Shown: piece after piece, positions 49,118 to 63,831 of the stretch
Layout: the number at the start of each line of letters is the position of its first letter
Numbering within the stretch: the first letter of the stretch is position 1
Virus record (IMG/VR): IMGVR_UViG_3300021598_001257
Source: an uncultured virus (IMG/VR IMGVR_UViG_3300021598_001257)
Taxonomy: Duplodnaviria; Heunggongvirae; Uroviricota; Caudoviricetes
Reading direction: 5' to 3' (one strand)
Length of the DNA stretch: 64,000 nt
Notes under the pieces: generated by a model
The model's input: only the letters and a program-made list of their open reading frames with translations
Database searches by the model: none
What the model was told of the DNA's origin: nothing
Translations under genes and position numbers: made by a program

Positions 49118-49142
49118 AAAAAAGCAGGAATTTCTTCCTGCT
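49118..49142 (-). terminator. Intrinsic terminator
   Basis: AGCAGGAA-GAAA-TTCCTGCT followed by TTTTT on the minus strand. Confidence 0.8.
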
Positions 49143-49151
49143 CTATCTATA

Positions 49152-50487: not shown

Positions 50488-50634
50488 TTATTTAACCATC
50501 GCATTATATATCATTACTATCAGTACTCCAAGGGGCACTCCAATGATTCGGAATACCTTCCCCGGATACCGTATTAACCACCCCTCAAAGACAACCTTCC
50601 AAAAATTCCAATAGGGGGTTTTTTGTCTTCTCAT
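50488..50634 (-). CDS. Small membrane peptide (48 aa); not in the ORF track
   Basis: Manual translation MRRQKTPYWNFWKVVFEGWLIRYPGKVFRIIGVPLGVLIVMIYNAMVK. Confidence 0.55.
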   Translation of the reverse strand: MRRQKTPYWNFWKVVFEGWLIRYPGKVFRIIGVPLGVLIVMIYNAMVK

Positions 50635-50783
50635 ACCTTCCGGAAAATTTTTAAGAGATTGATATAGCTCGGTCGATTTGTCACCTCTGTAGGTTAGGGT
50701 AGTTTGGGTTTTTTATAACCGCAACGCCGCCGCGACGATATAAACGAACGGCGCAAAACACTGCCGAACCACTGTCATCACCA

Positions 50784-50823
50784 AGCATAACATAAGTGCC
50801 CCTCAGTGTCAACCAAGGGGCAC
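50784..50823 (-). promoter_or_regulatory. Sigma70-type promoter with a stem-loop around the -35 box
   Basis: GTGCCCCT...AGGGGCAC stem enclosing TTGACA, then N17-TATGCT. Confidence 0.65.
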
Positions 50824-50837
50824 ACAGTTAGACTATA

Positions 50838-51008
50838 TCAGAACGCGATTTCCTCCAGAGTAGGAATACCCAGAGCAGACTCAAGTTGCGGCGACTCGAT
50901 ATAATCAAAACCACTCACATTATCAGCAGTGAGTGCATCCAGAATGGACAGAATCTCGCTGCCAGTGTTACCTTGTGCCAGCAGAGAAAGAAGAACTTGC
51001 TTGGACAT
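50838..51008 (-). CDS. Hypothetical protein (start reassigned to MSKQVLL)
   Basis: Internal ATG after an A/C-rich leader; upstream in-frame part looks non-coding. Confidence 0.55.
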   Translation of the reverse strand: MSKQVLLSLLAQGNTGSEILSILDALTADNVSGFDYIESPQLESALGIPTLEEIAF

Positions 51009-51140
51009 AATAAAGAAGAAAAGTGTTGTGAACTGTGTGTTGGGTGAGAGTGTCCCTAGTCCTCTCATTGTAGCAGTTGTGCTACTTCCTGGAACGTGCC
51101 TAGTTTATACTCATGCGACAGGAGTGAGTGTTACTTAAGA

Positions 51141-51398
51141 CTAGAAATCAAACACGTCAGAGTTAATCTGAATCACGTTAACTTTCGGGTCCTTGAATGA
51201 TACTCCATCAGGCGTCTTTAGTGAGTTGAAAGAACACGCCTCTAGTGCATCTACGAAGTCTTCATAGTTACCTGCTTCCATCGCAAGGTGATACAAACCC
51301 TCATCATTGTTAATCCAGAGAGCAACATTCCAGGTCTCATAATTCTCCCAACCATTATACTCAGTGGAGAGAATGTTGCGTTGATAAGTGGTAGTCAT
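51141..51398 (-). CDS. Hypothetical protein
   Basis: YNGW-NYETWNVALWI-ND motif; downstream of repeat copy 1. Confidence 0.75.
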   Translation of the reverse strand: MTTTYQRNILSTEYNGWENYETWNVALWINNDEGLYHLAMEAGNYEDFVDALEACSFNSLKTPDGVSFKDPKVNVIQINSDVFDF

Positions 51399-51415
51399 CT
51401 GTGAGTGGTTGTCCT

Positions 51416-51446
51416 TACACTATGGGGACAATCTCAGGGGCCCAAT
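51416..51446 (-). repeat. Cassette-boundary repeat, copy 1 of 13
   Basis: tacactatggggacaatctcaggggcccaat. Confidence 0.95.
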
Positions 51447-51469
51447 AATACTCACTCAGTCGGTATGAG

Positions 51470-51643
51470 TTACCACTTATCAGGACGGCTGAGGTCTTCC
51501 ACATAAGCTGACACACGCTCAGCTGGTTCCAATTTGAATACTTTATCCCAGTCAAGTTGATGCGGGTCGAAGTCTTCGAAGACCTCAAGCTCTAGAGTGA
51601 CCCTATAACGCTGCTTCTGGGCTTGGCGATACGCAACCGACAT
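51470..51643 (-). CDS. Hypothetical protein (57 aa); not in the ORF track
   Basis: Manual translation MSVAYRQAQKQRYRVTLELEVFEDFDPHQLDWDKVF...; preceded by a sigma70 promoter. Confidence 0.7.
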   Translation of the reverse strand: MSVAYRQAQKQRYRVTLELEVFEDFDPHQLDWDKVFKLEPAERVSAYVEDLSRPDKW

Positions 51644-51672
51644 AAGTGTGCTCCGTGAGTGTTACTGTGGCT

Positions 51673-51701
51673 ACTATAAGATGCTGGGGGCAATGTGTCA
51701 A
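51673..51701 (-). promoter_or_regulatory. Sigma70-type early promoter
   Basis: TTGACA-N17-TATAGT. Confidence 0.8.
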
Positions 51702-51775
51702 GACCTTGGGTGTATTTATGAGGGGTGTTGATATTTTATGAGGGTGATTGTGGGGATTTGGAAACGTCGGGGTGC

Positions 51776-51804
51776 TTGACATTTTGGAGAGTGTGTGATA
51801 GCTT
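51776..51804 (+). promoter_or_regulatory. Divergent sigma70-type promoter on the + strand
   Basis: TTGACA-N17-TAGCTT with extended TG. Confidence 0.55.
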
Positions 51805-51824
51805 GCACGCAAAGATCACAAGAC

Positions 51825-51875
51825 CTAGAAGGATTTAAAAGGCATAAGTTACGGGGTCTAGAAGGATTTAAAAGG
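51825..51875. repeat. 18-bp direct repeat, two copies, period 33
   Basis: ctagaaggatttaaaagg at 51825-51842 and 51858-51875. Confidence 0.9.
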
Positions 51876-51879
51876 GCTT

Positions 51880-51922
51880 TATTCCACAGATTCCACAAGC
51901 TTTTCCACAAGGCTGTTGAAAA
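51880..51922. promoter_or_regulatory. Cluster of DnaA-box-like 9-mers
   Basis: tattccaca, gattccaca, ttttccaca and inverted tgttgaaaa, followed by an AT-rich stretch. Confidence 0.45.
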
Positions 51923-51996
51923 CTCAGCTATATTTAAAAAAGGCTTTATTAAACGTTTTAATACATTTTTGACACTAAATCACGTTTTTAGGCATT

Positions 51997-52021
51997 AAAA
52001 AAGAGGGGTTAGATCCCCTCT
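51997..52021 (-). terminator. Intrinsic terminator
   Basis: AGAGGGG-N6-CCCCTCT followed by a T-run on the minus strand. Confidence 0.75.
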
Positions 52022-52031
52022 CTATGTGTAT

Positions 52032-52268
52032 TCAATCAAGTGCTAATCGGTAACGAGCATAATCCTCTGCATCGCTACGTTTGCGGAATCGTGCTTCTTC
52101 ACCTTCAAATCGTAGAGGCAAATACCTATACTTCTTGCCTTCCTTCGTCATAACAATTCGGGAGAATAGGTGCAGTGAGTAACTACCATCCTCACTTCTT
52201 TCCTTCTCTTTCTTTACAATGAAGGGGAGAACTTGTTGATCGTTGAATGATGCTTTGGAGAGTAACAT
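52032..52268 (-). CDS. Hypothetical basic protein
   Basis: 78-aa ORF followed by a terminator. Confidence 0.7.
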   Translation of the reverse strand: MLLSKASFNDQQVLPFIVKKEKERSEDGSYSLHLFSRIVMTKEGKKYRYLPLRFEGEEARFRKRSDAEDYARYRLALD

Positions 52269-52299
52269 TTTGGAAAAAAGTATAATGAACTGGAGTGAA

Positions 52300-52437
52300 T
52301 CAGTATGTCATAATGGTTGCAATCGTTCCTGCTCGTGTATAGAAATCAACCATTCTTTCTGCTTCATTGTAGGTACTGAAACCTTGAAACTTCCATCCTT
52401 GAGAGTAAGGACAAAACCAGCGAATCGTTGTTCTCAT
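52300..52437 (-). CDS. Small hypothetical protein (45 aa), tandem paralog B
   Basis: Manual translation MRTTIRWFCPYSQGWKFQGFSTYNEAERMVDFY... Confidence 0.7.
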   Translation of the reverse strand: MRTTIRWFCPYSQGWKFQGFSTYNEAERMVDFYTRAGTIATIMTY

Positions 52438-52568
52438 TGTGTTACTAATTCAGCAGGACTACCACACGATTTATAGAACTCTATCATGCGTTGTGCTTCA
52501 TCAAGTGTAGAGAATGATTGCGTTCTCCATTGTTGTTGATAAGGCGTAAAGTAGCGAATGGTGAACAT
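52434..52568 (-). CDS. Small hypothetical protein (44 aa), tandem paralog A
   Basis: Manual translation MFTIRYFTPYQQQWRTQSFSTLDEAQRMIEFY... Confidence 0.7.
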   Translation of the reverse strand: MFTIRYFTPYQQQWRTQSFSTLDEAQRMIEFYKSCGSPAELVTQ

Positions 52569-52840
52569 CAGAACTTATCCATCCATTGTTGAATCTTTTG
52601 CAGTGCAGTTGGCTCATCATTGCACTTACACTTGCGGAACTTGGTTGTATTCAAACCTTTTGAAATCAGTTCCAGTTTGCCATCAGCAAGACAGAAGATT
52701 CCATATCGTGAGTTATGGAAAATGTTGTTAATCCAGGAATCTTGAGTATCAGCACTGACCTTAAAAAAGATCGAAGTGTGATTAGCAAGAGTGCTATTGT
52801 CGATGTGGAGATAAGGGAAAGACATTTGGGAAGTGCTCAT
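52568..52840 (-). CDS. Hypothetical protein (alternative start 52825)
   Basis: W-NNIFHNSRY motif; first ATG lies inside repeat copy 2. Confidence 0.7.
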   Translation of the reverse strand: MSTSQMSFPYLHIDNSTLANHTSIFFKVSADTQDSWINNIFHNSRYGIFCLADGKLELISKGLNTTKFRKCKCNDEPTALQKIQQWMDKF

Positions 52841-52868
52841 ACTACTAGGACAATCTCAGGGGCCCAGT
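52838..52868 (-). repeat. Cassette-boundary repeat, copy 2
   Basis: catactactaggacaatctcaggggcccagt. Confidence 0.95.
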
Positions 52869-52878
52869 ATTTGTTAGG

Positions 52879-53052
52879 TCAGTCGTTTGAAGTGTGAAGA
52901 ATGGAGATCATCTTTTGGTAATAGTTGTCTGCTTCTACCTCACATTGATGAGATTCGTTTGCATCTTCAATCTCATATTGTTTCATATTAAGACGATGAA
53001 TAACGCTTTCTAGAAGATCAGTCAGTGCTTCAATCTTTTGTGCTTCAGTCAT
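52879..53052 (-). CDS. Hypothetical protein (57 aa)
   Basis: Manual translation MTEAQKIEALTDLLESVIHRL...; TAATG coupling with the upstream gene. Confidence 0.65.
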   Translation of the reverse strand: MTEAQKIEALTDLLESVIHRLNMKQYEIEDANESHQCEVEADNYYQKMISILHTSND

Positions 53053-53369
53053 TAGTTAAGCACCATACCTTCAGTGAAAGGAACTGTGTTGCCATTATCA
53101 ATCACAAACCATTCAAAGTCACGTTGAAAGATACGGGCATCATTTCCGTGAACTTTCAGAATAGCATTGAGACGTGATTTGGTGGTAACAGTCTTATACC
53201 CACAGGTGTAAAGTTCAAGGAAGGTATCACCAATCGTTGCGATATGATTGCCATGAAGCATAACATATGAAGCATCACGTTCGGGCGAATAAGTTACCTC
53301 AGTGTTGTCATTTTTCCAGTCTTTGCAATCACAGATTGCTTTGTTCATTTGGAGTTCAATCTTACGCAT
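53052..53369 (-). CDS. Hypothetical protein
   Basis: 105 aa with LHGNHIA and T-TTKSRLNAIL motifs. Confidence 0.75.
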   Translation of the reverse strand: MRKIELQMNKAICDCKDWKNDNTEVTYSPERDASYVMLHGNHIATIGDTFLELYTCGYKTVTTKSRLNAILKVHGNDARIFQRDFEWFVIDNGNTVPFTEGMVLN

Positions 53370-53387
53370 GGTTGGAAGTTCAGTGGT

Positions 53388-53418
53388 TATACTACAGGGA
53401 CAATCTCAGGGGCCCAGT
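53388..53418 (-). repeat. Cassette-boundary repeat, copy 3
   Basis: tatactacagggacaatctcaggggcccagt. Confidence 0.95.
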
Positions 53419-53423
53419 TTCTA

Positions 53424-53624
53424 TCAGGCAGCGATTGCAGACTCCAGACATACCTCACGGGTTTCGAGAAGTACATAATCGAACTCAGATTCTAACTGCT
53501 TCAGGTAAGCATCTGCAGCGGAGAAGCAATCAAACAAGCGGAGAGATTTGAAGTCTTCACCTTCATAATCAATGCCACCAATTACAGCATAAACTTTAGA
53601 CATTTGGAAAGCGTTGGTGTTCAT
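53424..53624 (-). CDS. Hypothetical protein (alternative start 53603)
   Basis: Single ORF filling the module between repeats 3 and 4. Confidence 0.7.
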   Translation of the reverse strand: MNTNAFQMSKVYAVIGGIDYEGEDFKSLRLFDCFSAADAYLKQLESEFDYVLLETREVCLESAIAA

Positions 53625-53652
53625 ACTATAGGGACAATCTCAGGGGCCCAGT
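53622..53652 (-). repeat. Cassette-boundary repeat, copy 4
   Basis: catactatagggacaatctcaggggcccagt. Confidence 0.95.
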
Positions 53653-54040
53653 TTTTATCAACTTTTGATTTATTCTTCAGATATATGACAAAACTCCATC
53701 AAATAGTAATCAATACTGATGCCAAGTTCGATTGCTTCGTCTTTGATTTCCTCGTAAATGTTTTCAGGAATTGTATGATATTCAGTCTCAATCATGGTCA
53801 ATTTCTCCTCCTTTGATTTCAACATTTTCAAGAATAGTGACGATAGAATTGTTTGGGGTAAGATACTGAACTTGTAAAACATTCGGTGCAATTTCAGTCG
53901 CTCCGATAATGGTTGATGCAATCAGAAGTTCAATCATTGTGGCGAAATAATGTCTGCTACAGTGTGCAATGCGCTTGCAGTAGTGTTGCGAACTCCAGGT
54001 GATAAAATACTCGCAACGATGAAGATTAACAGAATTGTCT

Positions 54041-54238
54041 TCAATTTACTACGTCGTAGCGAAGTGATTTTATGCACCATCCTGTATTGTTTGTGATAAC
54101 ATCTGCAAGACAATCCTCACCATCAGGTGAATCCCACAGACAATTCTTTGCATCATTTACAATCTCATCTTTCTCTTCTTCAGTGAGATCTTCGTAGTCA
54201 AAATCAAACTCAATTTCAGTTACTTTGTAGAAGTTCAT
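54041..54238 (-). CDS. Acidic hypothetical protein
   Basis: 65 aa with TGWCI motif; first gene after repeat 5, followed by further very short ORFs down to 53670. Confidence 0.7.
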   Translation of the reverse strand: MNFYKVTEIEFDFDYEDLTEEEKDEIVNDAKNCLWDSPDGEDCLADVITNNTGWCIKSLRYDVVN

Positions 54239-54255
54239 TGTGGTTTCTCAGTGCT

Positions 54256-54286
54256 TATACTACTAGGACAATCTCAGGGGCCCAGT
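54256..54286 (-). repeat. Cassette-boundary repeat, copy 5
   Basis: tatactactaggacaatctcaggggcccagt. Confidence 0.95.
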
Positions 54287-54291
54287 TTCTA

Positions 54292-54882
54292 TCAGAACAG
54301 ATTGCGACCAAAAGATCCACACAAATAAAACGCCATTCCCTTATCCTTAAGCGTCACACCTGCAAATGTCAGAGGTACATAGCGGCCGTTGGTTTTAGAT
54401 GCTTTCGTGCGAATCTGCAGCAATCCGTTAGGTCCAGTGATGGTTCCTAGTTGTTTACCAGCATCGAAAAGTGTGCGAATGCTGTTACAAATGAACTCAT
54501 AATCCTCACGCAATTCTTGATAGTGCTCCGCATGAGTTTCCTCATTCAGAATAGCGGAACCCATATAATCGTTCTCACGAGTGAATCCAACATACAGAGT
54601 TTGCTTTAGTTTCTGCCCGACTTTGCTATCATCAAACGAGACAGAATCTTCGATGATTTCAGATAGACAATGCTTCAACTGTGTGGCAGCAATCGACTCT
54701 CCAACTGTGAAAGTCTTAATTTCCCCATCTTCCAGATCTTGCAGGTCAGAAGAGTTAGGAACTCCCAGTGCAATTTCTAACAGTTGCCCACGAGCACCTT
54801 TGTTCTTTCCTGGTTTATCAAATGCACTGAAGTCAGTAACATTCAGTTTCGCAAATACTTCGTTCGTTGTCAGTTTTGGCAT
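54292..54882 (-). CDS. MutH/Sau3AI-family PD-(D/E)xK endonuclease
   Basis: NKG--GQLLE--LG...D...GEIKT and LQIRTKA motifs typical of MutH/Sau3AI. Confidence 0.7.
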   Translation of the reverse strand: MPKLTTNEVFAKLNVTDFSAFDKPGKNKGARGQLLEIALGVPNSSDLQDLEDGEIKTFTVGESIAATQLKHCLSEIIEDSVSFDDSKVGQKLKQTLYVGFTRENDYMGSAILNEETHAEHYQELREDYEFICNSIRTLFDAGKQLGTITGPNGLLQIRTKASKTNGRYVPLTFAGVTLKDKGMAFYLCGSFGRNLF

Positions 54883-54896
54883 CGTGGTTGTGCTCT

Positions 54897-54927
54897 TATA
54901 CTACAAGGACAATCTCAGGGGCCCAGT
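54897..54927 (-). repeat. Cassette-boundary repeat, copy 6
   Basis: tatactacaaggacaatctcaggggcccagt. Confidence 0.95.
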
Positions 54928-54929
54928 TT

Positions 54930-55169
54930 CTATTGCCCAACAAGATCGTTTGCAACTTCATCATCATAGATTTCGCGGATTTCTTCAATCAACTCATCTA
55001 CAGTTTCAAACTGTTTCGTGAGGTTATCAATGAGAGTATCAAGTGCAAACTGTTCGAGAGATTTGTAATCCATACCATCCAAAATCATCTGAGCATAGTT
55101 CTCAACAACAGTGCTAAAATCAGGAGTCATTTCAGTCATTTTGTTTGTGGGATTAGGAAGGGAAATCAT
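54930..55169 (-). CDS. Acidic hypothetical protein
   Basis: ORF ends immediately before repeat 6; start uncertain. Confidence 0.7.
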   Translation of the reverse strand: MISLPNPTNKMTEMTPDFSTVVENYAQMILDGMDYKSLEQFALDTLIDNLTKQFETVDELIEEIREIYDDEVANDLVGQ

Positions 55170-55393
55170 TGAATAACAGTGTTCACATCAGGATTGAAAG
55201 TAACCTCATGGAGCACATCAAAATCATCACTCATCTTGACATAATTCCAGAGAGTGTCAGTCTCATCATCCACATTTTCCTGATAAAGGTGAATGAAACC
55301 GTCATCATCTTGTTTTACATAACAACCATCATAATTTTCATCATCAAATACATAACCAGATGCAATCAGTGCGTCAGTAAAAGTCATAATCAA
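55166..55393 (-). CDS. Acidic hypothetical protein
   Basis: About 73-75 aa; overlaps its neighbours. Confidence 0.7.
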   Translation of the reverse strand: MIMTFTDALIASGYVFDDENYDGCYVKQDDDGFIHLYQENVDDETDTLWNYVKMSDDFDVLHEVTFNPDVNTVIQ

Positions 55394-55563
55394 TCAACAA
55401 CAGAGTAACAGGCAACCCAGGAAGGAATACCCGAAAGTGCTAAAGAACCGTTGCGGTCGTCGCAATACTCTTGGGCATCATCTTCACTGTAGAAAGGTCC
55501 AACATACTCAGGAGAATTGAGTGCATTGGAATCGAATCGAACTGTGAAAGTGGTTTGTGTCAT
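55390..55563 (-). CDS. Hypothetical protein (57 aa); ATG inside repeat 7
   Basis: Manual translation MTQTTFTVRFDSNALNSPEYVGPFYSEDDAQEYC... Confidence 0.7.
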   Translation of the reverse strand: MTQTTFTVRFDSNALNSPEYVGPFYSEDDAQEYCDDRNGSLALSGIPSWVACYSVVD

Positions 55564-55591
55564 ACTACAGGGACAATCTCAGGGGCCCAGT
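55561..55591 (-). repeat. Cassette-boundary repeat, copy 7
   Basis: catactacagggacaatctcaggggcccagt. Confidence 0.95.
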
Positions 55592-55592
55592 T

Positions 55593-55766
55593 TCAATAAC
55601 CGTTCAGAAAGTCAGCAAGTGCTTCCTGATACTCAGCTTCAGTCTCAAAGGTACGATAACCAATCGTGCAAGGAAAGGTACGCTTTGAAGCAGAAGCTTT
55701 AGGCAGGTCACGACACTTATCGAGAACCTGTTGCTTGTAAGGATTGGCGTTGTAGTTAGTGTTCAT
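55593..55766 (-). CDS. Hypothetical protein (57 aa) exactly filling the module between repeats 7 and 8
   Basis: Manual translation MNTNYNANPYKQQVLDKCRDLP...FETEAEYQEALADFLNGY. Confidence 0.7.
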   Translation of the reverse strand: MNTNYNANPYKQQVLDKCRDLPKASASKRTFPCTIGYRTFETEAEYQEALADFLNGY

Positions 55767-55794
55767 ACTATAGGGACAATCTCAAGGGCCCAAT
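55764..55794 (-). repeat. Cassette-boundary repeat, copy 8
   Basis: catactatagggacaatctcaagggcccaat. Confidence 0.95.
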
Positions 55795-55937
55795 TACTTA
55801 AACGTTGCATTGACACCAATCACCTTTGCTGTAGGATTTCGTGCTGTTGCTGTTTCGCGGGCATCTTTTGGGGAGTTAGCATACACTTCCTCTTTGAAGA
55901 CTTTACCACCAACGTAGAGTTGAACTTCGTATTTCAT
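55794..55937 (-). CDS. Hypothetical protein (47 aa)
   Basis: Manual translation MKYEVQLYVGGKVFKEEVYANSQKDARETATARNPTAKVIGVNATFK. Confidence 0.7.
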   Translation of the reverse strand: MKYEVQLYVGGKVFKEEVYANSPKDARETATARNPTAKVIGVNATFK

Positions 55938-56128
55938 AGTGTTTGAAACTCCTGTGCTTCTTTGATGTTAGAATTGAAAAACTTTTGGAAGATGGAATCA
56001 ATCACAGGATACCATTCTTCGTTACCACTTGGGTATCCACATTCTCGTGCTTGATTGAGAAACTTTAAGATGCAAGTTTCCTCATTAGCAGTGAACTCAA
56101 CGCGATTGAAAGTGTAACCGTCAGTCAT
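55934..56128 (-). CDS. Hypothetical protein
   Basis: 64-aa ORF in a tightly packed operon. Confidence 0.65.
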   Translation of the reverse strand: MTDGYTFNRVEFTANEETCILKFLNQARECGYPSGNEEWYPVIDSIFQKFFNSNIKEAQEFQTL

Positions 56129-56130
56129 AA

Positions 56131-56406
56131 TCAGTTCACCGATTCTTGGTAGATTGACATACCCTTACGCATAGAAATGTAGTCATCAATCATCTCACCA
56201 ATCTGTTCATAAACGTAGGAAGAACCTCCTACATCACAGAGCACATCTTCAGTGAGTTGTTTAGAGAAACGCACTTCCTTATCATTAGCATCAAACTCAA
56301 AGACATCCTCTTGAGTGTATATAAACGCAGCACAACCTGCGTCTTCACCTTGTTGCTCAATCAGTTGGTTGATTGAATCACGGAGTTGGGAAAGTGTGCG
56401 GAACAT
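56131..56406 (-). CDS. Hypothetical protein (start reassigned to MFRTLSQL)
   Basis: Packs 2 nt from the upstream stop. Confidence 0.65.
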   Translation of the reverse strand: MFRTLSQLRDSINQLIEQQGEDAGCAAFIYTQEDVFEFDANDKEVRFSKQLTEDVLCDVGGSSYVYEQIGEMIDDYISMRKGMSIYQESVN

Positions 56407-56408
56407 AA

Positions 56409-56573
56409 TCAGGAATAAACAGGAATAGAGGTGATTTCTTTCCACTCTCGTGGGAAGATTTCGTTGGCAATTTTTTCGTTCAGTTTGACACAGTTGAGAG
56501 GTTTGATGTTACTTTTGCGTTGGAACTTCTCAACAGTTCCATCTCTAAACTCAACGCGAATGTTGTAAAGCAT
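56409..56573 (-). CDS. Hypothetical protein (start reassigned to MLYNIRV)
   Basis: Packs 2 nt from the upstream stop. Confidence 0.6.
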   Translation of the reverse strand: MLYNIRVEFRDGTVEKFQRKSNIKPLNCVKLNEKIANEIFPREWKEITSIPVYS

Positions 56574-56575
56574 AA

Positions 56576-56815
56576 TCAAGCAGGAAGGATACAGAAAGTG
56601 CCACACCAACCGCGAACCCAGTTTAGAGTTTCATGGTAAGATGTGCGAGGATTGCTCATCTCCATCTTGGAACCGTTGCTAGGATTGTATGCAACAGCGA
56701 CATAGAGATTGTCGCACTCTTTATCAGTGATTTGCTCAATCCACATTTGATTGACTTTACCTTCCTTCCAATTTGTGTGGTAGGAGTAGACTTCGGAAAC
56801 GATGGTGTTGCTCAT
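56576..56815 (-). CDS. Hypothetical protein; ATG inside repeat 9
   Basis: 79-aa ORF. Confidence 0.7.
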   Translation of the reverse strand: MSNTIVSEVYSYHTNWKEGKVNQMWIEQITDKECDNLYVAVAYNPSNGSKMEMSNPRTSYHETLNWVRGWCGTFCILPA

Positions 56816-56843
56816 ACTATAGGGACAATCTCAAGGGCCCAGT
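56813..56843 (-). repeat. Cassette-boundary repeat, copy 9
   Basis: catactatagggacaatctcaagggcccagt. Confidence 0.95.
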
Positions 56844-56848
56844 TTCAA

Positions 56849-57103
56849 TCACCAGCGGCCTTGTTGAATGAGAATCTTTTTTATCTCAGTATAAATGAAC
56901 TGACGAAGTTTAGCGTCTGTGGTGTTATCAAGAGCATAATACAGTCGATTCAGATACTCATTCTGCGTAAGACCTATGTTACCATCACCACCAATCTCAT
57001 TGAGTGATGAACCTGCTTTAGCTTTGGGGCGTCCAAAGTTACCTGTGACGTTGCCAGATGTCCTCAGTTTGGGACGAATCTTTGAGAGGTTAGAGTAAGT
57101 CAT
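56849..57103 (-). CDS. Basic hypothetical protein
   Basis: 84-aa ORF. Confidence 0.7.
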   Translation of the reverse strand: MTYSNLSKIRPKLRTSGNVTGNFGRPKAKAGSSLNEIGGDGNIGLTQNEYLNRLYYALDNTTDAKLRQFIYTEIKKILIQQGRW

Positions 57104-57282
57104 TCATCTTCCTCATAAGGGAACATTTCGTCATACTCTTCGTCTGTGAGAGTAAGATACTGAACGTTAGCATTTTTGTGCTCTTCAGCATACACCAACT
57201 GATAATGTGCGAAAGAAGAAGGGTCAGAACTAGCAAACTCTAGCAGACCATCAACAAAACAAAGGTAATTCATGTTACTCAT
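57100..57282 (-). CDS. Acidic hypothetical protein
   Basis: About 60 aa; start uncertain. Confidence 0.6.
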   Translation of the reverse strand: MSNMNYLCFVDGLLEFASSDPSSFAHYQLVYAEEHKNANVQYLTLTDEEYDEMFPYEEDE

Positions 57283-57710
57283 TTTGCGTACAGATAACCA
57301 CCAGACCAATCAGCATTTTCCAGCAGATATTCACGATCCTTTATCAATCGCAAATCATAACGAACACCTTTCGCAGGAGATTTCCAGGAGGCAGACTTAT
57401 ACATTTCACCAGTGTTCTTATCAATGAAGCAATGAACAGAGCGAGACATACCACTGGTAATCATAATCACTTTATGATACTTTTTACCAGTTTCAATCTC
57501 ATACTCAATAGGACAAAATCCACTCTTGAGTTCATCAATACAGCGCAGATGATACTCTACACTTTCACCACGCTCCGCAGAACGCTGATGCCCACGAATA
57601 GCGTACTGACGATAATTGTCTTTCAGTGCTTCAATCAGCAGCAGAGTATTCTTAAGGACGCTTTCTGCGATAGTTTGTTGTGCTTGTGCTTGCATCGTAG
57701 GAGTGCTCAT
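57279..57710 (-). CDS. Phage hypothetical protein (alternative start 57695)
   Basis: KY-KV...SVHCFID--TG--YK-ASW-SPAK-VR motif. Confidence 0.75.
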   Translation of the reverse strand: MSTPTMQAQAQQTIAESVLKNTLLLIEALKDNYRQYAIRGHQRSAERGESVEYHLRCIDELKSGFCPIEYEIETGKKYHKVIMITSGMSRSVHCFIDKNTGEMYKSASWKSPAKGVRYDLRLIKDREYLLENADWSGGYLYAK

Positions 57711-57738
57711 ACTATAGGGACAATCTCAAGGGCCCAGT
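57708..57738 (-). repeat. Cassette-boundary repeat, copy 10
   Basis: catactatagggacaatctcaagggcccagt. Confidence 0.95.
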
Positions 57739-58640
57739 TACCAACTCTTTGCAAGAGTGAAGTTCAACCTGCTAAACTCTTCACGATTCACAATCTTGTA
57801 AGACCCAAACTTGTTGTGCATTACGAATCCTTCGTGATCGCTGAGTTCACCATCAATCTCACAAGTAATGTCAGTGTCAGACTCAATGAAGCAGAACAAA
57901 TCCATCTTGATAGACTCAACCAACTTCCAAAGCCGCATCAGGTTGATGTCAACATCATAATTTTCTGCAATTTCATGCTCATCCACCTCCTTACCCTCAC
58001 GAACGTAGGAATTGATGATTTTTTTGAGTTCTGCTGCTTGCTTTACATTCACGAACTCACAAAGTGTGCTCATTTGCTTGGCAAACTTGCAGAAGTCTTC
58101 AATATCATCACGGAAGGGACAAATAGACACACTAGGTTGCACAAACAAGCATTTTTTAGTGCTTGCAAACTTACCCACGATAGGATGAGCTACCATCTCA
58201 GGCAGACGCTCACCAGTGTAATATGTGTGAGGGGCAATGATAATCTCCTGACGAACAATCTCAGGGAAGCGATAGGTAATTGTATTGGGTTTGAATGTAT
58301 CCAATCCACTACCAAAACCAATCCAATCCCCCTGATACACGTTCTTAGTGCGAGGAAGAAAATCCAGGCAGAAGATAAGAATTTGCGTTACGCGAGGTTG
58401 ACCACCAAAGTGCGTAAAGATGTCGTCTTCGGTATAGCAAAGGCGAATCTTTTTCTTGTTAAATGCTGCTTTGGTGCAGACAAAGAACTTACCATTCTCA
58501 GGATTAGTGCCCCAAACAATAGCAGGAGCACCATCCATCTTGGTGCTGATGGTAGAATCTACCTCAGAAAACCAGTCAAGAACAGATAGATTACCCGTTA
58601 GGATTTCGTCTTCAGGATGCTCTAGGTGCTTGTTTTGCAT
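57738..58640 (-). CDS. Ligase/nucleotidyltransferase-superfamily-like protein (about 300 aa)
   Basis: HLEHPED, KMDGAP (KxDG motif I), YQGD, EGFV and KIVNR motifs. Confidence 0.55.
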   Translation of the reverse strand: MQNKHLEHPEDEILTGNLSVLDWFSEVDSTISTKMDGAPAIVWGTNPENGKFFVCTKAAFNKKKIRLCYTEDDIFTHFGGQPRVTQILIFCLDFLPRTKNVYQGDWIGFGSGLDTFKPNTITYRFPEIVRQEIIIAPHTYYTGERLPEMVAHPIVGKFASTKKCLFVQPSVSICPFRDDIEDFCKFAKQMSTLCEFVNVKQAAELKKIINSYVREGKEVDEHEIAENYDVDINLMRLWKLVESIKMDLFCFIESDTDITCEIDGELSDHEGFVMHNKFGSYKIVNREEFSRLNFTLAKSW

Positions 58641-58652
58641 TGGTTGCTTACT

Positions 58653-58683
58653 CATACTACTAGGACAATCCCAAGGGCCCAAT
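58653..58683 (-). repeat. Cassette-boundary repeat, copy 11
   Basis: catactactaggacaatcccaagggcccaat. Confidence 0.95.
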
Positions 58684-58863
58684 TTAGTCTATTGGTAGTT
58701 GTGCCACACTTTTACCCCTCTTATGGTCTGTAATGTATTTTCGCGCAGAAGCTTCTGTTCTACAGACTTTCTCAAGTTGTTGGCCATTATGAATGATAAG
58801 ATACTGCTTGCCATAAGGAATAGCAGCATAAGTATCGTTGAACATCGTAAATCCTTCTTTCAT
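58684..58863 (-). CDS. Hypothetical protein (59 aa)
   Basis: Manual translation MKEGFTMFNDTYAAIPYGKQYLIIHNGQQL...; stop codon abuts repeat 11. Confidence 0.7.
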   Translation of the reverse strand: MKEGFTMFNDTYAAIPYGKQYLIIHNGQQLEKVCRTEASARKYITDHKRGKSVAQLPID

Positions 58864-59682
58864 TCAATACACCGCAATGAGTTCGCTTGCTTTCTTCCTA
58901 CTGCCACTTTTTGCAGCAATAGTTCTTGTTACTTGAATCGGGTAGATTGTAGCATTTTTGTAGAGTTCTCGTGTGATAGGAACATCATGATTAGACACAA
59001 TCACTTTGATACCCTTCGCTGCAAGAGATTCTGTAAGTTGTGCTAATTGAACCTGCTGGTCGGAGGTGAATCCATCAGTAGCATAACTTGTGAAGTTTGC
59101 AGTGGCTGATGCAGGAACATATGGTGGGTCGAAGTAGACAACATCACCTGCTTCCAAGTCTTCATAGAGAGATGAATCTTCAAAAGAAAGTGATGTGAAT
59201 CTCACAAGTTGTTTGGATAAGAAATACATCCTGAAGTTCATCATTTCCTCCGATGGACAAGATGGTTTGTCATACTTACCAAAGGGGACATTAAATCCAC
59301 CTTTACTATTATATCTTGACAAACCATTAAAGCAGTGACGATTCAAGTAAATGAACAGTCGTGCTCTCTCTACAGTATCTGTTGCTTGATTAAAATGCTC
59401 TCGCAACTCTAGATATGCTTCTTTGGTGTTATTCTCTGAAGTGAATAGTTCCTCACAATACTTGATGAAGTTATCATCATTTGGATTCACCAGATTCTGA
59501 TAGATTGCTACCAAATCTTTATTCACATCGTTGAGAATGTATTGTTCTGCTGGTGTATTTAAAGCAACAGCAAGACTACCACCAAATGGTTCACAATAAC
59601 GCTTTGGACTTCCGATGTGAGGAATAAGATGTGGCAGAACTCTCGTTTTGTTTCCTGCCCATTTCAGAAAAGTTTTGTTCAT
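58864..59682 (-). CDS. dam: DNA adenine methyltransferase (Dam/D12 family)
   Basis: LKWAGNK, EPF-GS-AV, LNDVN, FNGL-RYN-KG-FNVPFG and DPPY motifs. Confidence 0.92.
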   Translation of the reverse strand: MNKTFLKWAGNKTRVLPHLIPHIGSPKRYCEPFGGSLAVALNTPAEQYILNDVNKDLVAIYQNLVNPNDDNFIKYCEELFTSENNTKEAYLELREHFNQATDTVERARLFIYLNRHCFNGLSRYNSKGGFNVPFGKYDKPSCPSEEMMNFRMYFLSKQLVRFTSLSFEDSSLYEDLEAGDVVYFDPPYVPASATANFTSYATDGFTSDQQVQLAQLTESLAAKGIKVIVSNHDVPITRELYKNATIYPIQVTRTIAAKSGSRKKASELIAVY

Positions 59683-59688
59683 TTAACC

Positions 59689-60219
59689 TCAGACAAGAAA
59701 TTTCTTTTCATACTCCAACAAATCTGATGGAGCTGGAATAATGTTGTCATCATATTCTACAGCATTTTCCCATCTTGCACCACTCTTTCGATACAACTTG
59801 ATGTCAAGATGCTGGTACTTGAGATTAGTTGGAACGTGTACTTTATAGTCGATACCATTATTCTCTGTGAGCATACTCAACCGCTTGTTCTCATCCTTTG
59901 TGACTGTGATTGTGGAGCAAGATAACCAAAACAGGTTCTCAAATATATCATAATCTGTCAGGTATTTGTCTGGGTTATCCATAATCATTCGACCAATGAA
60001 TTGTGGTGACAAACAGTGGTCATAAGTTCGCTCTTTTCGATTATTCTTCGCTCCTTCACTTATCAATCCAAGATGATTTACCTGAGCACAATCAAACACA
60101 CCAATGTAGTAAATGCGTGTGATGGGTCGGAAGAAATCAGGTTCACCCCAGTTGTCTACATTTGCCTGCAATGAGTTGAATGTTGTTTTGCAGTAGGCTT
60201 TCCAGTTCTTCGGGTTCAT
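59689..60219 (-). CDS. Hypothetical protein, possible His-Me/HNH-like nuclease
   Basis: T-DH--SP ... VTK-EN--L pattern; weak. Confidence 0.5.
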   Translation of the reverse strand: MNPKNWKAYCKTTFNSLQANVDNWGEPDFFRPITRIYYIGVFDCAQVNHLGLISEGAKNNRKERTYDHCLSPQFIGRMIMDNPDKYLTDYDIFENLFWLSCSTITVTKDENKRLSMLTENNGIDYKVHVPTNLKYQHLDIKLYRKSGARWENAVEYDDNIIPAPSDLLEYEKKFLV

Positions 60220-60332
60220 TTTGAGAAAAATCGGTGATTTTGTTGCGGTTGATGGGTTCTAGGTCGGTTGCAGTGAAATTGCAGAAAAATCAGGTTTTTA
60301 CACCTGATGGCCACTTGAGTCTTGAGTGAGAC

Positions 60333-61580
60333 TCACCGCCTCACCACCGACACGGCAGGTTCACCTTTTTCAAAGATGGTATCAACAACCGACTGCACAG
60401 CTTTGGCAGTGCTGATACCAACCTTGCTGTAGACAGGAATACACACAAGACCAAAGCTCTTGGTGTATTGCGACAGGTTGCCAGGTTGGATGCTACCATC
60501 ACGGAGACCTTTTGCATCGTCATGATGTAGACGGATGCAGCGACCAATAGTTTGGCTGATACCGATAAAGTCCATGTTGCGAAGGAACAGAACTGCCTCA
60601 AGTCCAGAGACATTGATGCCTTCAGCTAGGATGCTATGGTGCAGAACAACAAACTTCTTATCGTTATCCTTACCCCATGCGCTCAGAGTGTCAAAGAACA
60701 CCTCACGATTGACCTTCTTGCCGTCAATAACTGCGCCAGTCTTAGCAGTAATATACATCCAGGAATAACCGCGACACTCCAACTGGAAGCAGAAATCAGT
60801 TTCAGTCACCAGAGACACGATTTGCTTGGTTGCCTTAGCACAAATCAGAATCTTACCAACCTTGTTCTCATCAATCGTTTCCAGCAGATTCTCCGAATCG
60901 CGGTCGAAGTTGGTCTGCTTGCCAGTCACCATAGCCAGTTGCTTGACAATAACTTTGGGAGGCACAATGTAACCACCTTCAACCAACTCAGGAGCAGGAA
61001 CTTTGCAGATTACCTGACCATAAACAGCAGCATCATTCATGCCAGGTTTGCCAACTGCCAGAGAATGTTTGGGAGTTGCAGTGAAGAAGTAGCAACGACG
61101 TGCATTAGCAGCAAAGTGCTCAGTTGCAGGAAAGAAGTGACGCTGAACAGAATTATGTGCCTCATCAAAGTAGATCGTATCCACATCAATTCCTGCCACT
61201 TGAAGACGCGACAGAGAGTTGTAGGTAGTGAAGATCAGTTGGTGACGATTAGCAGCAGCACACATACCAGCATGAACAAGAATGTCAGCAGGTTTGGTAG
61301 TGCTAACGTGATGAGTCTCGCCACTGTGAACGTGAAGAACTTCAGCGTTGGTGATAAACTCCAGAAACTCAGCAGAGAGTTGCTCAGCAAGCAAGATGCG
61401 GGGAGCAACAACAACAATGGTCTGGGGAGTTTCAGACTGCAACTCACGCAGACAATCGTAAATCATTTTGAGAGTCTTACCACCGCCAGTAGGAACAATG
61501 ATTTGCCCTTTGTCGTGCTTCTGCATAGCAGCAACACCACGTTCTTGATGAGGGCGAAGATTGATCAGATGAGGAATCAT
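60333..61580 (-). CDS. SF2 DEAH helicase (ResIII-like)
   Basis: LRPHQ, PTGGGKT, DEAH, TATP, EGIN and QTIGRCIR motifs. Confidence 0.88.
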   Translation of the reverse strand: MIPHLINLRPHQERGVAAMQKHDKGQIIVPTGGGKTLKMIYDCLRELQSETPQTIVVVAPRILLAEQLSAEFLEFITNAEVLHVHSGETHHVSTTKPADILVHAGMCAAANRHQLIFTTYNSLSRLQVAGIDVDTIYFDEAHNSVQRHFFPATEHFAANARRCYFFTATPKHSLAVGKPGMNDAAVYGQVICKVPAPELVEGGYIVPPKVIVKQLAMVTGKQTNFDRDSENLLETIDENKVGKILICAKATKQIVSLVTETDFCFQLECRGYSWMYITAKTGAVIDGKKVNREVFFDTLSAWGKDNDKKFVVLHHSILAEGINVSGLEAVLFLRNMDFIGISQTIGRCIRLHHDDAKGLRDGSIQPGNLSQYTKSFGLVCIPVYSKVGISTAKAVQSVVDTIFEKGEPAVSVVRR

Positions 61581-61621
61581 TACGAATTACAGAGTTTCGG
61601 GTGGTTTGGTATCTAAAAAGC

Positions 61622-61657
61622 ATTATAGCACCCTTCCTGACGCTTGTGAAGGGTGCT
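61622..61657 (-). promoter_or_regulatory. Sigma70-type promoter embedded in a 10-bp stem-loop
   Basis: TTCACA-N17-TATAAT; AGCACCCTTC/GAAGGGTGCT inverted repeat. Confidence 0.7.
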
Positions 61658-61669
61658 GATGGCAGTTAA

Positions 61670-61825
61670 TCAACCACCAAACATTTCATCAAACAACCAA
61701 TCACCAGAACGTTCTTTTTCTTCCCAGACTTTGTTAGCGTTTGCTTCAATCATTGCCCGTTCGATTTGAATATCGAGGGTAGATTTGGTGCTGAACCAGT
61801 TACCGTTGCGGTCTTGCCAGAGCAT
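61670..61825 (-). CDS. Hypothetical protein (51 aa)
   Basis: Manual translation MLWQDRNGNWFSTKSTLDIQIERAM...FDEMFGG; follows repeat 12. Confidence 0.65.
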   Translation of the reverse strand: MLWQDRNGNWFSTKSTLDIQIERAMIEANANKVWEEKERSGDWLFDEMFGG

Positions 61826-61847
61826 AGTGTCGTTTGAGTGTTGTCCT

Positions 61848-61878
61848 TATATTACAAGGACAATCTCAGGGGCCCGAT
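61848..61878 (-). repeat. Cassette-boundary repeat, copy 12
   Basis: tatattacaaggacaatctcaggggcccgat. Confidence 0.95.
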
Positions 61879-62505
61879 TCAAGTATCAGGACCAGTGTAC
61901 TTGTGCTTCAATTCACTTTCCTTCTTCTTACCTGTCGCTTTGAGAACCAAATCGCGCAGTTTTTGCTTACCTGCTCTTACCATTTGTTTCTTTTCTGCTT
62001 TGGTATATTTGCCTTTAATCATGTGCTCTTCAGGTTTTCTTGAGCTTGAGAATCTAGAATCTTTGGGTGCTGCCGATGATTTAGGTGCTGCTTTCTTTCT
62101 CAGCAGTTCAGTTGCTTTTGCTTTTAATTCTTTCTCTTTTGGTTTTGCTGCTTCTGGTTTTGCTCCTGCCTTTTTCGCAGCAATTCTTGCCTGTGCAGCT
62201 TTTCTTCTCTCTTCCTTTGCAGCTGCTAGTTGTGCTTCTCTTGCGGACCCACGTTCTTGCTTTGGTGCTTCAATCGTAGACTCACGCTTCTTGCCAATAT
62301 CTTTGCGTGGTTTCTGAACTACAGGTGCAGTCTTTCCACCACCAACTCTCTTTGTTCTACGAATCTCAGGAGTTGTCTTTCTGCGAAGTCTTCCAGTTCT
62401 TCCACCTTCTCCAGTCTTAATGACTTGAGCACCAGAGCGAAACTCTGCATCATAGGTGTCACCAGTTGCTTCGCAAATAGACATAAACTCCTGAAAGGTT
62501 TTCAT
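61879..62505 (-). CDS. Lys/Arg/Ala-rich putative internal head protein
   Basis: Starts MKTFQEFMSICE; own late-promoter-like CTAAATA at 62530-62536. Confidence 0.65.
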   Translation of the reverse strand: MKTFQEFMSICEATGDTYDAEFRSGAQVIKTGEGGRTGRLRRKTTPEIRRTKRVGGGKTAPVVQKPRKDIGKKRESTIEAPKQERGSAREAQLAAAKEERRKAAQARIAAKKAGAKPEAAKPKEKELKAKATELLRKKAAPKSSAAPKDSRFSSSRKPEEHMIKGKYTKAEKKQMVRAGKQKLRDLVLKATGKKKESELKHKYTGPDT

Positions 62506-62532
62506 TGCTATCTAAACACTACTTTTTAGTAT

Positions 62533-62733
62533 TTAGAACTCCACTTCCTTTGCTTTATATGAACCTTTGAATACACGTCCTTCTGCATAGAATTGCTTCA
62601 CACGTTCGCGGCGAGTAGCAAGAAGCAAATCATATTCTTCTTGTTGTTGCTTAGTGAACGTGAAATCTTGCCGCCTCCAAGTATCTTTCAGTTCTTGGAT
62701 GTGGGGAAGCACGTTAGGGATGTGTTCAGTCAT
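62533..62733 (-). CDS. Hypothetical protein
   Basis: 66-aa ORF. Confidence 0.7.
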   Translation of the reverse strand: MTEHIPNVLPHIQELKDTWRRQDFTFTKQQQEEYDLLLATRRERVKQFYAEGRVFKGSYKAKEVEF

Positions 62734-62793
62734 TTGAGTATAATAAAGAATGAAGGGTCAGTATGGGATATTTGGTGGACAGTTTAAAATCTG

Positions 62794-62928
62794 TCAGTAG
62801 TCAATGTTAGAGTTAAGATACTCATTCATATTAAAGTTGTTTTTCTCTTCAATCAATTCGGAGAGATCCTCTTCAATAAAATCAAAATTTTCAAGTTCCT
62901 CAATTTGATTGTCGTCGAACCAGTCCAT
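62794..62928 (-). CDS. Small acidic protein (44 aa)
   Basis: Manual translation MDWFDDNQIEELENFDFIEEDLSELIEEKNNFNMNEYLNSNIDY; follows repeat 13. Confidence 0.65.
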   Translation of the reverse strand: MDWFDDNQIEELENFDFIEEDLSELIEEKNNFNMNEYLNSNIDY

Positions 62929-62942
62929 AATGCTTGGGTGAT

Positions 62943-62973
62943 TACACTATAGAGACAATCCCAGGGGCCCAAT
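62943..62973 (-). repeat. Cassette-boundary repeat, copy 13
   Basis: tacactatagagacaatcccaggggcccaat. Confidence 0.93.
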
Positions 62974-62978
62974 TAAAA

Positions 62979-63359
62979 TCAAAGAGGAGATAGCATCGTA
63001 CTTCCAACCATTCTCTTCACAAATCTATCAGTATTACTCTGATGTTTCGGTTTTGGTGCTGTTGGCTTCATTGGAGAAGGACCAGCTGGAGTTGCTGCAG
63101 ATTTAAGGTTTTTCTGATGAACAGGATCACTCAACTTAAACACACTATTAGGACTGATTGGATCACCAACAGCCTCTCTTATCTTTTTTAAAGGCATATT
63201 CATGCGTTCTTTATATGAACCCTTATCTATAGTCTTAAATCCAGGATTGAACCTTGGTTGACGATTATCAGGAACACCAGGATCTTTTCCAAGCGAATAA
63301 AATGCCTGGACAAGAGATGGTTTTTGCGTTTGTTCTATAAACTGTTTAAAGGTTTTCAT
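62979..63359 (-). CDS. Putative internal head protein
   Basis: Starts MKTFKQFIE; basic; internal IREA possible cleavage site. Confidence 0.6.
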   Translation of the reverse strand: MKTFKQFIEQTQKPSLVQAFYSLGKDPGVPDNRQPRFNPGFKTIDKGSYKERMNMPLKKIREAVGDPISPNSVFKLSDPVHQKNLKSAATPAGPSPMKPTAPKPKHQSNTDRFVKRMVGSTMLSPL

Positions 63360-63366
63360 AGATTAC

Positions 63367-63801
63367 TCATTTTTTAGGGAATGTTCCAGGAATATCTTTA
63401 AATGTTTTTATTTTGTAGTAAGGGTCTTGGTCCTGCTTCTTTCTATACGTATTAAATTCTTTTTCTCTTTGTTGAGCAAGTTCTCTCCTTCTCAATCCAA
63501 CTGGACTCGTTCCTTGTGCCATAGCATCTGTTACTCTTGAACGATATGCTCTTCTATCATCCAATCTATCTCTAACAACATCTGATGGTGTAGATCCAAC
63601 CACAGATCTTGGCGACTCAACAATACTATCTCTCCACTCTTCACTCATATTTGCCATAATAGCAATTGCTGCTTCATTTGTGTCAGCATATCCTTCTGCA
63701 ACCAGATATTCAAGAATGTGGTCAAACAAATCATTATTTTCTTCAACTTGATGAACTTGGTTATATGCTTCTTGAAGATTTCGAAGTTCTTGGGAGTCCA
63801 T
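63367..63801 (-). CDS. Putative virion-packaged protein
   Basis: LQEAY-QV and EYLVAEGYA...IM-NMSEEW--SIVE leader followed by a basic C-terminus; CTAAATA at 63823-63829. Confidence 0.6.
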   Translation of the reverse strand: MDSQELRNLQEAYNQVHQVEENNDLFDHILEYLVAEGYADTNEAAIAIMANMSEEWRDSIVESPRSVVGSTPSDVVRDRLDDRRAYRSRVTDAMAQGTSPVGLRRRELAQQREKEFNTYRKKQDQDPYYKIKTFKDIPGTFPKK

Positions 63802-63831
63802 TGTTACAAATACTTTTTTAGGTATTTAGTA

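Follow-up and report, generated by a model that had tools for sequence, protein, structure and literature searches.

What is the role of a short sequence that recurs thirteen times, always in the same orientation, between the small genes of a phage? The question is raised by a stretch of 64,000 nucleotides from the uncultured virus IMGVR_UViG_3300021598_001257, the whole of which is referred to here as the window. The window comes from a T4-like cyanophage of the Kyanoviridae. Among named genomes, those of Synechococcus myoviruses are nearest to it, and the closest cultured phage is SynMITS9220M01 (Kyanoviridae). An earlier reading of the letters alone (the original prediction) had taken the repeat for a promoter and/or recombination site that defines mobile gene cassettes, possibly belonging to an integron-like acquisition and shuffling system. 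Our analysis suggests that the element is, on balance, probably a promoter cassette specific to the phage, placed at the head of the transcription units in the early/accessory gene region.

The 13-copy repeat was confirmed. The 17-nt core GACAATCYCARGGGCCC was found 13 times in the window with 0 mismatches, on the plus strand in every case, with starts at 51427, 52849, 53399, 53633, 54267, 54908, 55572, 55775, 56824, 57719, 58664, 61859 and 62954. The chance expectation was 0.01 (100 shuffles), and none of the shuffles attained 13. Variation in the core was confined to position 8 (T/C) and position 11 (G/A), and no extra copies appeared in the window at up to 2 mismatches. A 42-nt weight matrix was derived from the 13 copies, and its downstream half was also scanned separately; neither revealed an additional coding-strand copy in the 64 kb. 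The other matrix matches were two weak ones on the opposite strand (12.5 and 15.5 bits), adjoining the copies at 51427 and 61859. The 50-kb structural block was free of copies in both the core search and the matrix scans.

Much of the original prediction was borne out by these searches: the 13 same-orientation copies (the core starts lie 11 nt beyond the copy starts it gave), the 15 invariant positions out of 17 in the core, the lack of a full copy in the structural block, the module lengths of 203 to 3195 bp, an upstream stop codon at most 8 nt away in 10 of the 13 copies, and four internal modules holding one open reading frame (ORF) each, of 305, 57, 196 and 66 amino acids (aa). Other parts required correction. 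The conserved unit is not 31 bp long but ∼42 bp, and it includes a TAGTAT hexamer and often an ATG. It had been read on the plus strand, which is the wrong strand for the genes, and the total of 13 is exceeded by a 14th copy ∼2.6 kb past the window end. The names 'MutH-like' and 'ligase-like', given to the two larger single-gene products, were not confirmed: the 196-aa protein had no Pfam match and the 305-aa protein matched Pfam DUF6267 only, and sequence searches against solved structures gave no match for either.

All plausible genes at 48-64 kb lie on the minus strand, and the element must therefore be read as the reverse complement. In this direction it reads AAACT-GGGCCCYTGRGATTGTCC-nnn-TAGTAT-GAGCAC. 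The hexamer is TAGTAT in most copies, TAGTGT in two and TAATAT in one, so that TAnTrT holds in 13/13; GAGCAC or a near variant follows it, and an A-rich lead precedes GGGCCCYTGRGATTGTCC. Four parts can be distinguished: the A-rich lead, a private box at about -30 (here GGGCCCYTG), a shared core (RAKTGTCC-nnn), and TAGTAT followed by GAGCAC. All 13 copies share the orientation of the genes and occupy the gap between a stop and the next start. The element begins 2-26 nt past the stop codon of the preceding gene, and the next gene starts in the window copies either at an ATG overlapping the hexamer (TAGTATGA) or 17-25 nt beyond it. No -35-like hexamer was present at 16-18 bp; the sequence 17-18 bp upstream reads CTGGGC/ACTGGG and is not TTGACA-like, and a sigma70 consensus scan listed none of the 13 copies. 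The original prediction was correct in pointing to the missing TTGACA and to the conservation of what is usually the sigma70 spacer. In the order of transcription, the copies and their modules are as follows.

62935..62976, minus strand: copy 1, TAGTGT variant without ATG, heading ORFs of 44, 66 and 208 aa.
61840..61881, minus strand: copy 2, TAATAT variant without ATG, the sole copy with a strong hairpin (z -4.5); its module holds a 51-aa ORF, a UvsW-type helicase, a 176-aa ORF, a Dam-type methyltransferase and a 59-aa ORF.
58645..58686, minus strand: copy 3, in-frame ATG and a second ATG 15 nt downstream, heading the DUF6267 protein (305 aa) alone.
57700..57741, minus strand: copy 4, in-frame ATG, heading DUF7717 (143 aa) and ORFs of 60 and 84 aa.
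56805..56846, minus strand: copy 5, whose ATG is the sole start of a 79-aa ORF, heading a module of five ORFs.
55756..55797, minus strand: copy 6, whose ATG is the sole start of a 57-aa ORF, heading a one-gene module of 203 bp.
55553..55594, minus strand: copy 7, whose ATG is the sole start of a 57-aa ORF (MTQTTFTVRF...), heading a module of three ORFs.
54889..54930, minus strand: copy 8, no ATG, start codon 17 nt further on, heading the 196-aa protein (phrog_15364) alone.
54248..54289, minus strand: copy 9, no ATG, heading ORFs of 65 and 70 aa.
53614..53655, minus strand: copy 10, in-frame ATG, heading a 66-aa ORF alone.
53380..53421, minus strand: copy 11, no ATG, heading the Kyano_Gp96-family protein (105 aa) and a 57-aa ORF.
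52830..52871, minus strand: copy 12, in-frame ATG, heading five small ORFs.
51408..51449, minus strand: copy 13 (last), TAGTGT variant without ATG, heading DUF7249 (85 aa) and the genes up to the terminators.
L058:2016-2057, ∼2.6 kb past window position 64000: the 14th copy, variant GAGAGTGTCC with TAATGT, preceding a 137-aa gene that leads the array in relatives too.

The element belongs to a widespread family. Exact core matches were present in 56 stretches of IMG/VR contigs, and a search with the DUF6267 protein led to 80 related loci, in most of which an intergenic element recurred 4-16 times on the coding strand, the repeated words varying by locus. The conservation is of two kinds. Counted from the hexamer, positions of about -24 to +8 (AAAGTGTCC-nnn-TAGTATGAGCA) are shared across lineages, and upstream of them stand genome-specific boxes such as GGGCCCCTGA, CTCTGGGGCCTTGA, TGGGGGCCTTGA, GGGGGAGCCCCC, TTAAAGTTAGGATCGTCT, TTAAAGTTACTCACCTCC and TTAAAGTTACGATCGTCC. 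In 19 related loci, a recognisable hexamer was found in 232 of the 237 copies. In the copies lacking an ATG, in which non-coding bases follow, the information content was high for 6-8 nt past the hexamer and then dropped to background. Cultured marine carriers include SynMITS9220M01, S-SM2, S-B05, S-B43, RN05-S and RB11-B, and the family is present in many uncultured phages of fresh water and estuaries.

Within genomes, the element was restricted to one region. The genome of the window was represented by a near-identical record (G001; 121.9 kb, 57% complete), which contained 14 copies on one strand at 10.1-25.3 kb. A complete relative of 222.6 kb (G002) had 14 same-strand copies at 45.4-60.9 kb and one more match, with 1 mismatch and on the opposite strand, at 44.7 kb, which is probably a chance match. 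SynMITS9220M01 (190 kb) had 12 copies at 36.3-50.0 kb. Since the copies were confined to ∼15 kb in all three records, the signal belongs to one block of small genes and not to the genome at large.

The element was also linked to particular downstream genes. ORFs were called in 19 loci of different lineages and clustered, and the loci were written as strings of gene families and elements. The element preceded families 12 (14/14), 13 (14/14), 16 (13/13), 18 (12/12), 23 (10/10), 4 (18/19) and 3 (16/19), and it never preceded families 6 (0/17), 10 (0/15), 9 (0/14) and 11 (0/14). Relatives bear it ahead of the same gene families as the window does, and a given gene family is consistent in whether its copies contain an ATG. 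The promoter half of the original prediction fits these data (orientation, position in the stop-to-start gap, a TAnnnT hexamer and linkage to the downstream gene in 19 loci).

The promoter reading builds on the observed anatomy, the two-part conservation of the family, the gene linkage, the restriction to one region, and the absence of a recombinase and of a hairpin that are described below. In the mechanism that we propose, host RNA polymerase with a sigma70-family factor would recognise TAGTAT, and the upstream 25 bp would substitute for the missing -35 contact, either directly or via a factor. Transcription would start ∼7 nt downstream of TAGTAT, where the conservation stops; the end of conservation at 6-8 nt past the hexamer is about where a start site would fall. 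Each copy would add transcripts to everything downstream. No intergenic terminator-like sites were found within the array, and with 14 co-directional copies and no terminators between them each copy would therefore feed all downstream genes. Read-through transcripts begun at upstream copies would serve for the translation of genes whose sole ATG falls within the TAGTATGA box, and selection would keep an embedded ATG in frame or remove it.

Several observations weigh against this promoter reading. We infer promoter activity, the polymerase used, the start site, the early timing and read-through translation from sequence features. The lack of a -35 hexamer, together with a conserved stretch over the normally free spacer, means that the host polymerase may be insufficient by itself. 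In 119 of the 232 copies from the 19 loci, the putative -10 hexamer is overlapped by an ATG, and 113 of these 119 open into a downstream ORF of at least 30 codons. The window copies at 55572, 55775 and 56824 furnish the only start codon of their ORFs; as a transcript starting 7 nt past TAGTAT cannot encode those proteins, one-gene modules such as that of 55775 would gain nothing from their own copy. In addition, the private box is uniform within a genome despite the mosaicism of the genes, which the promoter model leaves unexplained. Textbook promoter models account neither for the ATG that about half of the copies carry within the TAGTAT box nor for the uniform private box in mosaic genomes.

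Conserved N-termini in several families mark the embedded ATG as the real and only start. Where no ATG is embedded, in about half of the copies, the start codon follows 15-49 nt later, at a variable distance. A protein beginning MTETFTVR uses the ATG of the element in L100, and its counterpart in L091 begins at an ATG located 15 nt later. In DUF6267, conservation marks the second ATG as the start, and this is also the codon used in locus L066, in which the element is absent at this position. Twelve loci extend to the 5' end of the array, and in every one of them the embedded ATG is missing from the leading two to five copies, which is what the read-through model requires.

The private box was near-uniform per genome (13/13, 15/15 and so on), and the genes behind it were mosaic. 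On the DUF6267 tree (57 distinct proteins of 82), 26 changes of box type were counted, where the minimum would be 12 and shuffling gave a mean of 38, and for 40 of 44 gene families the nearest relative shared the box type in under half of the cases. A uniform box combined with mosaic genes implies either fast homogenisation among the copies or selection to match something genome-wide. Intact copies with a foreign box, one or two per genome and located mid-contig, were found in seven genomes (L062-L064, L080, L103, L104 and L131), one case recurring in three independent assemblies. Foreign boxes in otherwise uniform genomes show that promoter-plus-gene units are exchanged; nothing points to dedicated machinery for this exchange. 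To identify a specificity factor, the 44 gene families were compared with the box type, and no protein family in the region tracked it cleanly. The best tracker, the basic 208-aa protein, matched in 24/31 and was rejected as the factor, as in SynMITS9220M01, L067 and L104 its C-terminal module does not follow the box type. The C-terminal ∼60 residues occur in discrete versions. This protein (61879-62505, minus strand) is K/R/A-rich and very basic, and it had no Pfam or PHROG match. A search for an extra sigma factor returned a gp55-like match to sigma region 2 only. MotA (PF09114) and single-subunit RNA polymerase (PF00940) were each found in 0/3 records (G001, G002 and SynMITS9220M01), with the controls likewise silent.

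The missing -35 hexamer, and the position of the box where sigma region 4 would bind, raise the tentative and rather less probable alternative of a factor-dependent promoter, in which a phage-encoded, possibly virion-delivered protein binds the private box at about -30 and recruits or remodels the host polymerase. The start may then lie just upstream of the embedded ATG, giving leaderless or near-leaderless mRNAs, and the in-frame ATG in 113/119 copies would fit such a start. Four box types (GGGCCC, GGGGGAGCCCCC, ACGATCGT and GATC) are dyads centred at about -30.5 by manual count from the sequences, with the hexamer starting at -12, but the commonest AT-rich box type (TTACTCACCTCC) has no dyad. 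The near-uniform box in genomes with mosaic genes suggests selection to match a genome-level factor; against this stand the intact foreign-type copies beside the resident type in seven genomes and the lack of a protein family that tracks the box cleanly (24/31 at best). The searches that found no MotA, extra sigma factor or single-subunit polymerase also count against it, although the MotA and polymerase controls were silent, and the leaderless model does not predict that the first copies of every array lack an ATG. A more elaborate version, in which the private box is the docking site of a specificity factor, encoded by the phage and perhaps delivered with the virion, that redirects host polymerase, box-factor pairs diverge among lineages in the manner of immunity groups, and early mRNAs begin just ahead of the embedded ATG and are leaderless, is unlikely. 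The embedded start codons, in about half of the copies and in frame in 113/119, could also belong to an element that acts in RNA, within a long polycistronic early transcript; the shared core would then be a translation-initiation region lacking a Shine-Dalgarno sequence, possibly an operator for the translational repressor RegA or a processing site, and not a promoter. We regard this as quite improbable. Folding analysis agrees with an open initiation region, as 12 of the 13 window copies folded no better than shuffles (z -0.2 to +2.1, most being less structured) and the copy at 61859 alone formed a strong hairpin (z -4.5). A RegA homologue is encoded in the near-identical record (G001:C1:89567-89929) and in two relatives (E 1e-44 to 1e-45), and its presence makes a role of the shared core as a translational operator possible. 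However, in the other copies the start codon is 15-49 nt away at a variable distance while the form of the element stays fixed, the conservation ends at a fixed distance past TAGTAT whether or not coding sequence follows, the GC-rich private box has no evident role in RNA, and most genes of the array start without an element (884 ORFs vs 237 copies). Rfam gave a sub-threshold chance match only (24.7 bits vs a gathering score of 75). In copies 61840-61881 and 51408-51449 (minus strand), TTGTCC of the core pairs with a downstream GGACAA around the hexamer. A hexamer-spanning hairpin was rejected as a feature of the family, the pair frequencies being equal to those of shuffled columns at 9/9 pairs in 189 distinct copies.

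Recombination offers two further explanations. The repeats lie in a hyperplastic region of small ORFs and occupy the interval between a stop codon and the next ATG, like the promoter early stem-loops (PeSLs) of T4-type phages, and their G-run/C-run boxes recall the GGGG...CCCC stems of PeSLs. The main role of the element might accordingly be that of a seam at which homologous recombination between repeats shuffles, deletes and imports promoter-plus-gene modules, a role that has been proposed for PeSLs. Whole modules do differ or move among lineages (the one-gene modules 15, 54 and 30; families 3 and 5, which are swapped in L069/L078), and foreign-type copies head genes inside otherwise uniform genomes. 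But adjacency between gene families was kept equally with an element between them (494/812, 0.61) and without one (736/1162, 0.63), counts that pool related loci, omit ten multi-copy families and are descriptive, and the 19 loci showed no excess of gene-order breaks at the element. Nucleotide breakpoint mapping of the window against L104, L059, L106, L067 and L092 was blurred by the 70-89% identity. Four informative pairs of near-identical contigs were compared (L062/L063/L064 had no indel differences). The indels of L110/L111 and L115/L123 were located away from elements, and L066 and L067 differed in whether the element itself was present between two genes. L090 and L091 were identical over 8734 bp and then differed by one small gene and a foreign-type element (in L090), which speaks for the seam; this replacement ends inside the element in the last 367 bp of the contig (L090:8734-9101 vs L091:9561-10012), and may be due to recombination or to an assembly chimera at the contig end. 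The absence of a stem-loop or terminator in 12 of the 13 window copies, and of a TTGACA -35, also separates the element from PeSLs. A passive seam role of this kind is possible, and as the main role it is unlikely. An integron-like, site-specific cassette system, with the repeats as attC-like sites for a dedicated recombinase, is suggested by same-orientation repeats that delimit short modules, of which four hold only one gene. Tyrosine recombinases (PF00589; control positive in 14/14 genomes) and serine recombinases (PF00239; control positive in 13/14 genomes) were each found in 0/3 of G001 (57% complete), G002 and SynMITS9220M01, there is no inverted-repeat hairpin of the attC type, and breakpoints are not enriched at the element. 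Moreover, the element is promoter-like and travels with its downstream gene, while integron cassettes are mostly promoterless and carry attC at the 3' end. The integron-like part of the original prediction was therefore rejected, and we consider it extremely improbable.

The region of the array encodes a UvsW-type helicase, a Dam-class methyltransferase, DUF6267, DUF7717, DUF7326 and DUF7249 proteins and the Kyanoviridae Gp96-family protein. Three further signals were located in and behind the array.

61622..61650, minus strand: host-type promoter match (TTCACA-17-TATAAT with TG, 11/12), ∼40 nt before the helicase start at 61580.
50796..50823, minus strand: first terminator-like hairpin after the array, 12 pairs.
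49121..49144, minus strand: second terminator-like hairpin after the array, with a T-run.

The canonical TTCACA-17-TATAAT site before the helicase indicates that the phage also uses ordinary sigma70-type sites. Further near-consensus host-type promoters (11/12), distinct from the repeated element, lie in intergenic positions at 51673-51701 and 50232-50261 (minus strand). In several relatives, a terminator and promoter form a composite at DUF6267, with a T-run terminator-like hairpin directly before the copy that heads this gene (L067:5330-5400, L100:3936, L112:2596, L069:6798); the window has no such composite. The G+C content is 39-46% in the small-gene array (48000-64000) and ∼29-35% in much of the structural block (20000-48000). 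The structural block contains a single ORF of 4122 aa (33471-45839, minus strand), which presumably encodes a giant fibre or baseplate protein like those annotated in SynMITS9220M01 and Syn9.

Elements of a promoter-like kind are known from cyanophage early regions. In work by Doron et al. from 2016, a novel element reportedly drives the early genes of Syn9 and host-like promoters drive its middle genes; the early timing and the start sites are said to have been mapped in that phage. Syn9 belongs to the same virus family, and its element occupies the same region, between the tail-fibre and baseplate blocks. Like the element of the window, it is repeated, does not match the sigma70 consensus and stands before small genes including the orthologous Kyano_Gp96-family gene, and in both phages canonical host-type promoters occur separately from it. 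In Syn9 (L139, 43-54 kb), at least 6 gaps of the homologous region contained an upstream AAGGTGGCAC/AGTGTCCAC box and then, ahead of the ATG, ...GTGTATTCT-TAAGAGTCAAAGGG, and Syn9-like contigs form a separate 'S' class with their own repeated element before orthologous genes. The Syn9 element thus reads ...GTGTATTCT-TAAGAGTCAAAGGG...ATG; it has a leader and lacks an embedded ATG, whereas the window family combines a private box with a shared core, and about half of its copies carry an ATG within the hexamer.

T4 middle promoters combine a MotA box at -30 with a -10 TAnnnT and depend on sigma appropriation by AsiA/MotA. The window family resembles them in its -10 TAnnnT, in the lack of a -35 and in a conserved box ∼30 bp upstream. 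It differs in that the box changes between genomes, in that conservation is continuous from about -40 to -1, and in that a MotA homologue was not found (PF09114, 3 records, control silent). Two other phage promoter types were compared and rejected: for a T7-like promoter, the TATAG before the hexamer is not conserved (CTAGTAG, CTGTAG and CAGTAG variants occur), and for a T4 late promoter, TATAGTAT agrees with TATAAATA in the first four bases only. Cyanomyoviruses lack motA/asiA, and it is an open point by what means T4-like cyanophages activate their earliest genes in the absence of Alt, ModA/ModB, MotA and AsiA (PMC2984593). A signal of 42 bp, half of it shared and half private to a genome, gives a concrete handle on this question, and the cultured carriers SynMITS9220M01, S-SM2 and S-B05/S-B43 make it testable. 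If the private box did dock a factor, the system would be a functional counterpart of the T4 MotA/AsiA that cyanophages are thought to lack; if the element is an ordinary promoter family, it would still help in annotating the transcription units of these phages and in correcting their start codons. The anatomy of the family was not described in the literature searched, in which 13- and 14-nt strings of the shared core were absent and a 9-mer occurred only in unrelated papers; the strings searched were 9-14 nt of the shared core, none of them specific to the GATTGTCC variant of the window.

Integron arrays likewise have same-orientation repeats between short gene modules, but the window element is promoter-like and stands at the 5' end of its units, and neither an integrase (in the three records searched) nor an attC-type folded site was found. 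PeSLs occur in the T4-type phages RB49/phi1, T4/PST and KVP40/nt-1 and join a sigma70 promoter close to the consensus (TTGACA-N17-TATAAT or variants) to a terminator stem-loop (PMC2839356, PMC4122927). The window element is likewise a repeated intergenic cassette in a hyperplastic region, reaching from a stop codon to the next ATG; its consensus varies by phage group, it contains G/C runs, and the modules between elements differ among relatives. Unlike PeSLs, it has no -35, 12 of its 13 copies form no stem-loop, and breakpoints are not enriched at it. Of the described classes, PeSLs come closest in form and setting, and the early-gene element of Syn9 is the closest known system in biology.

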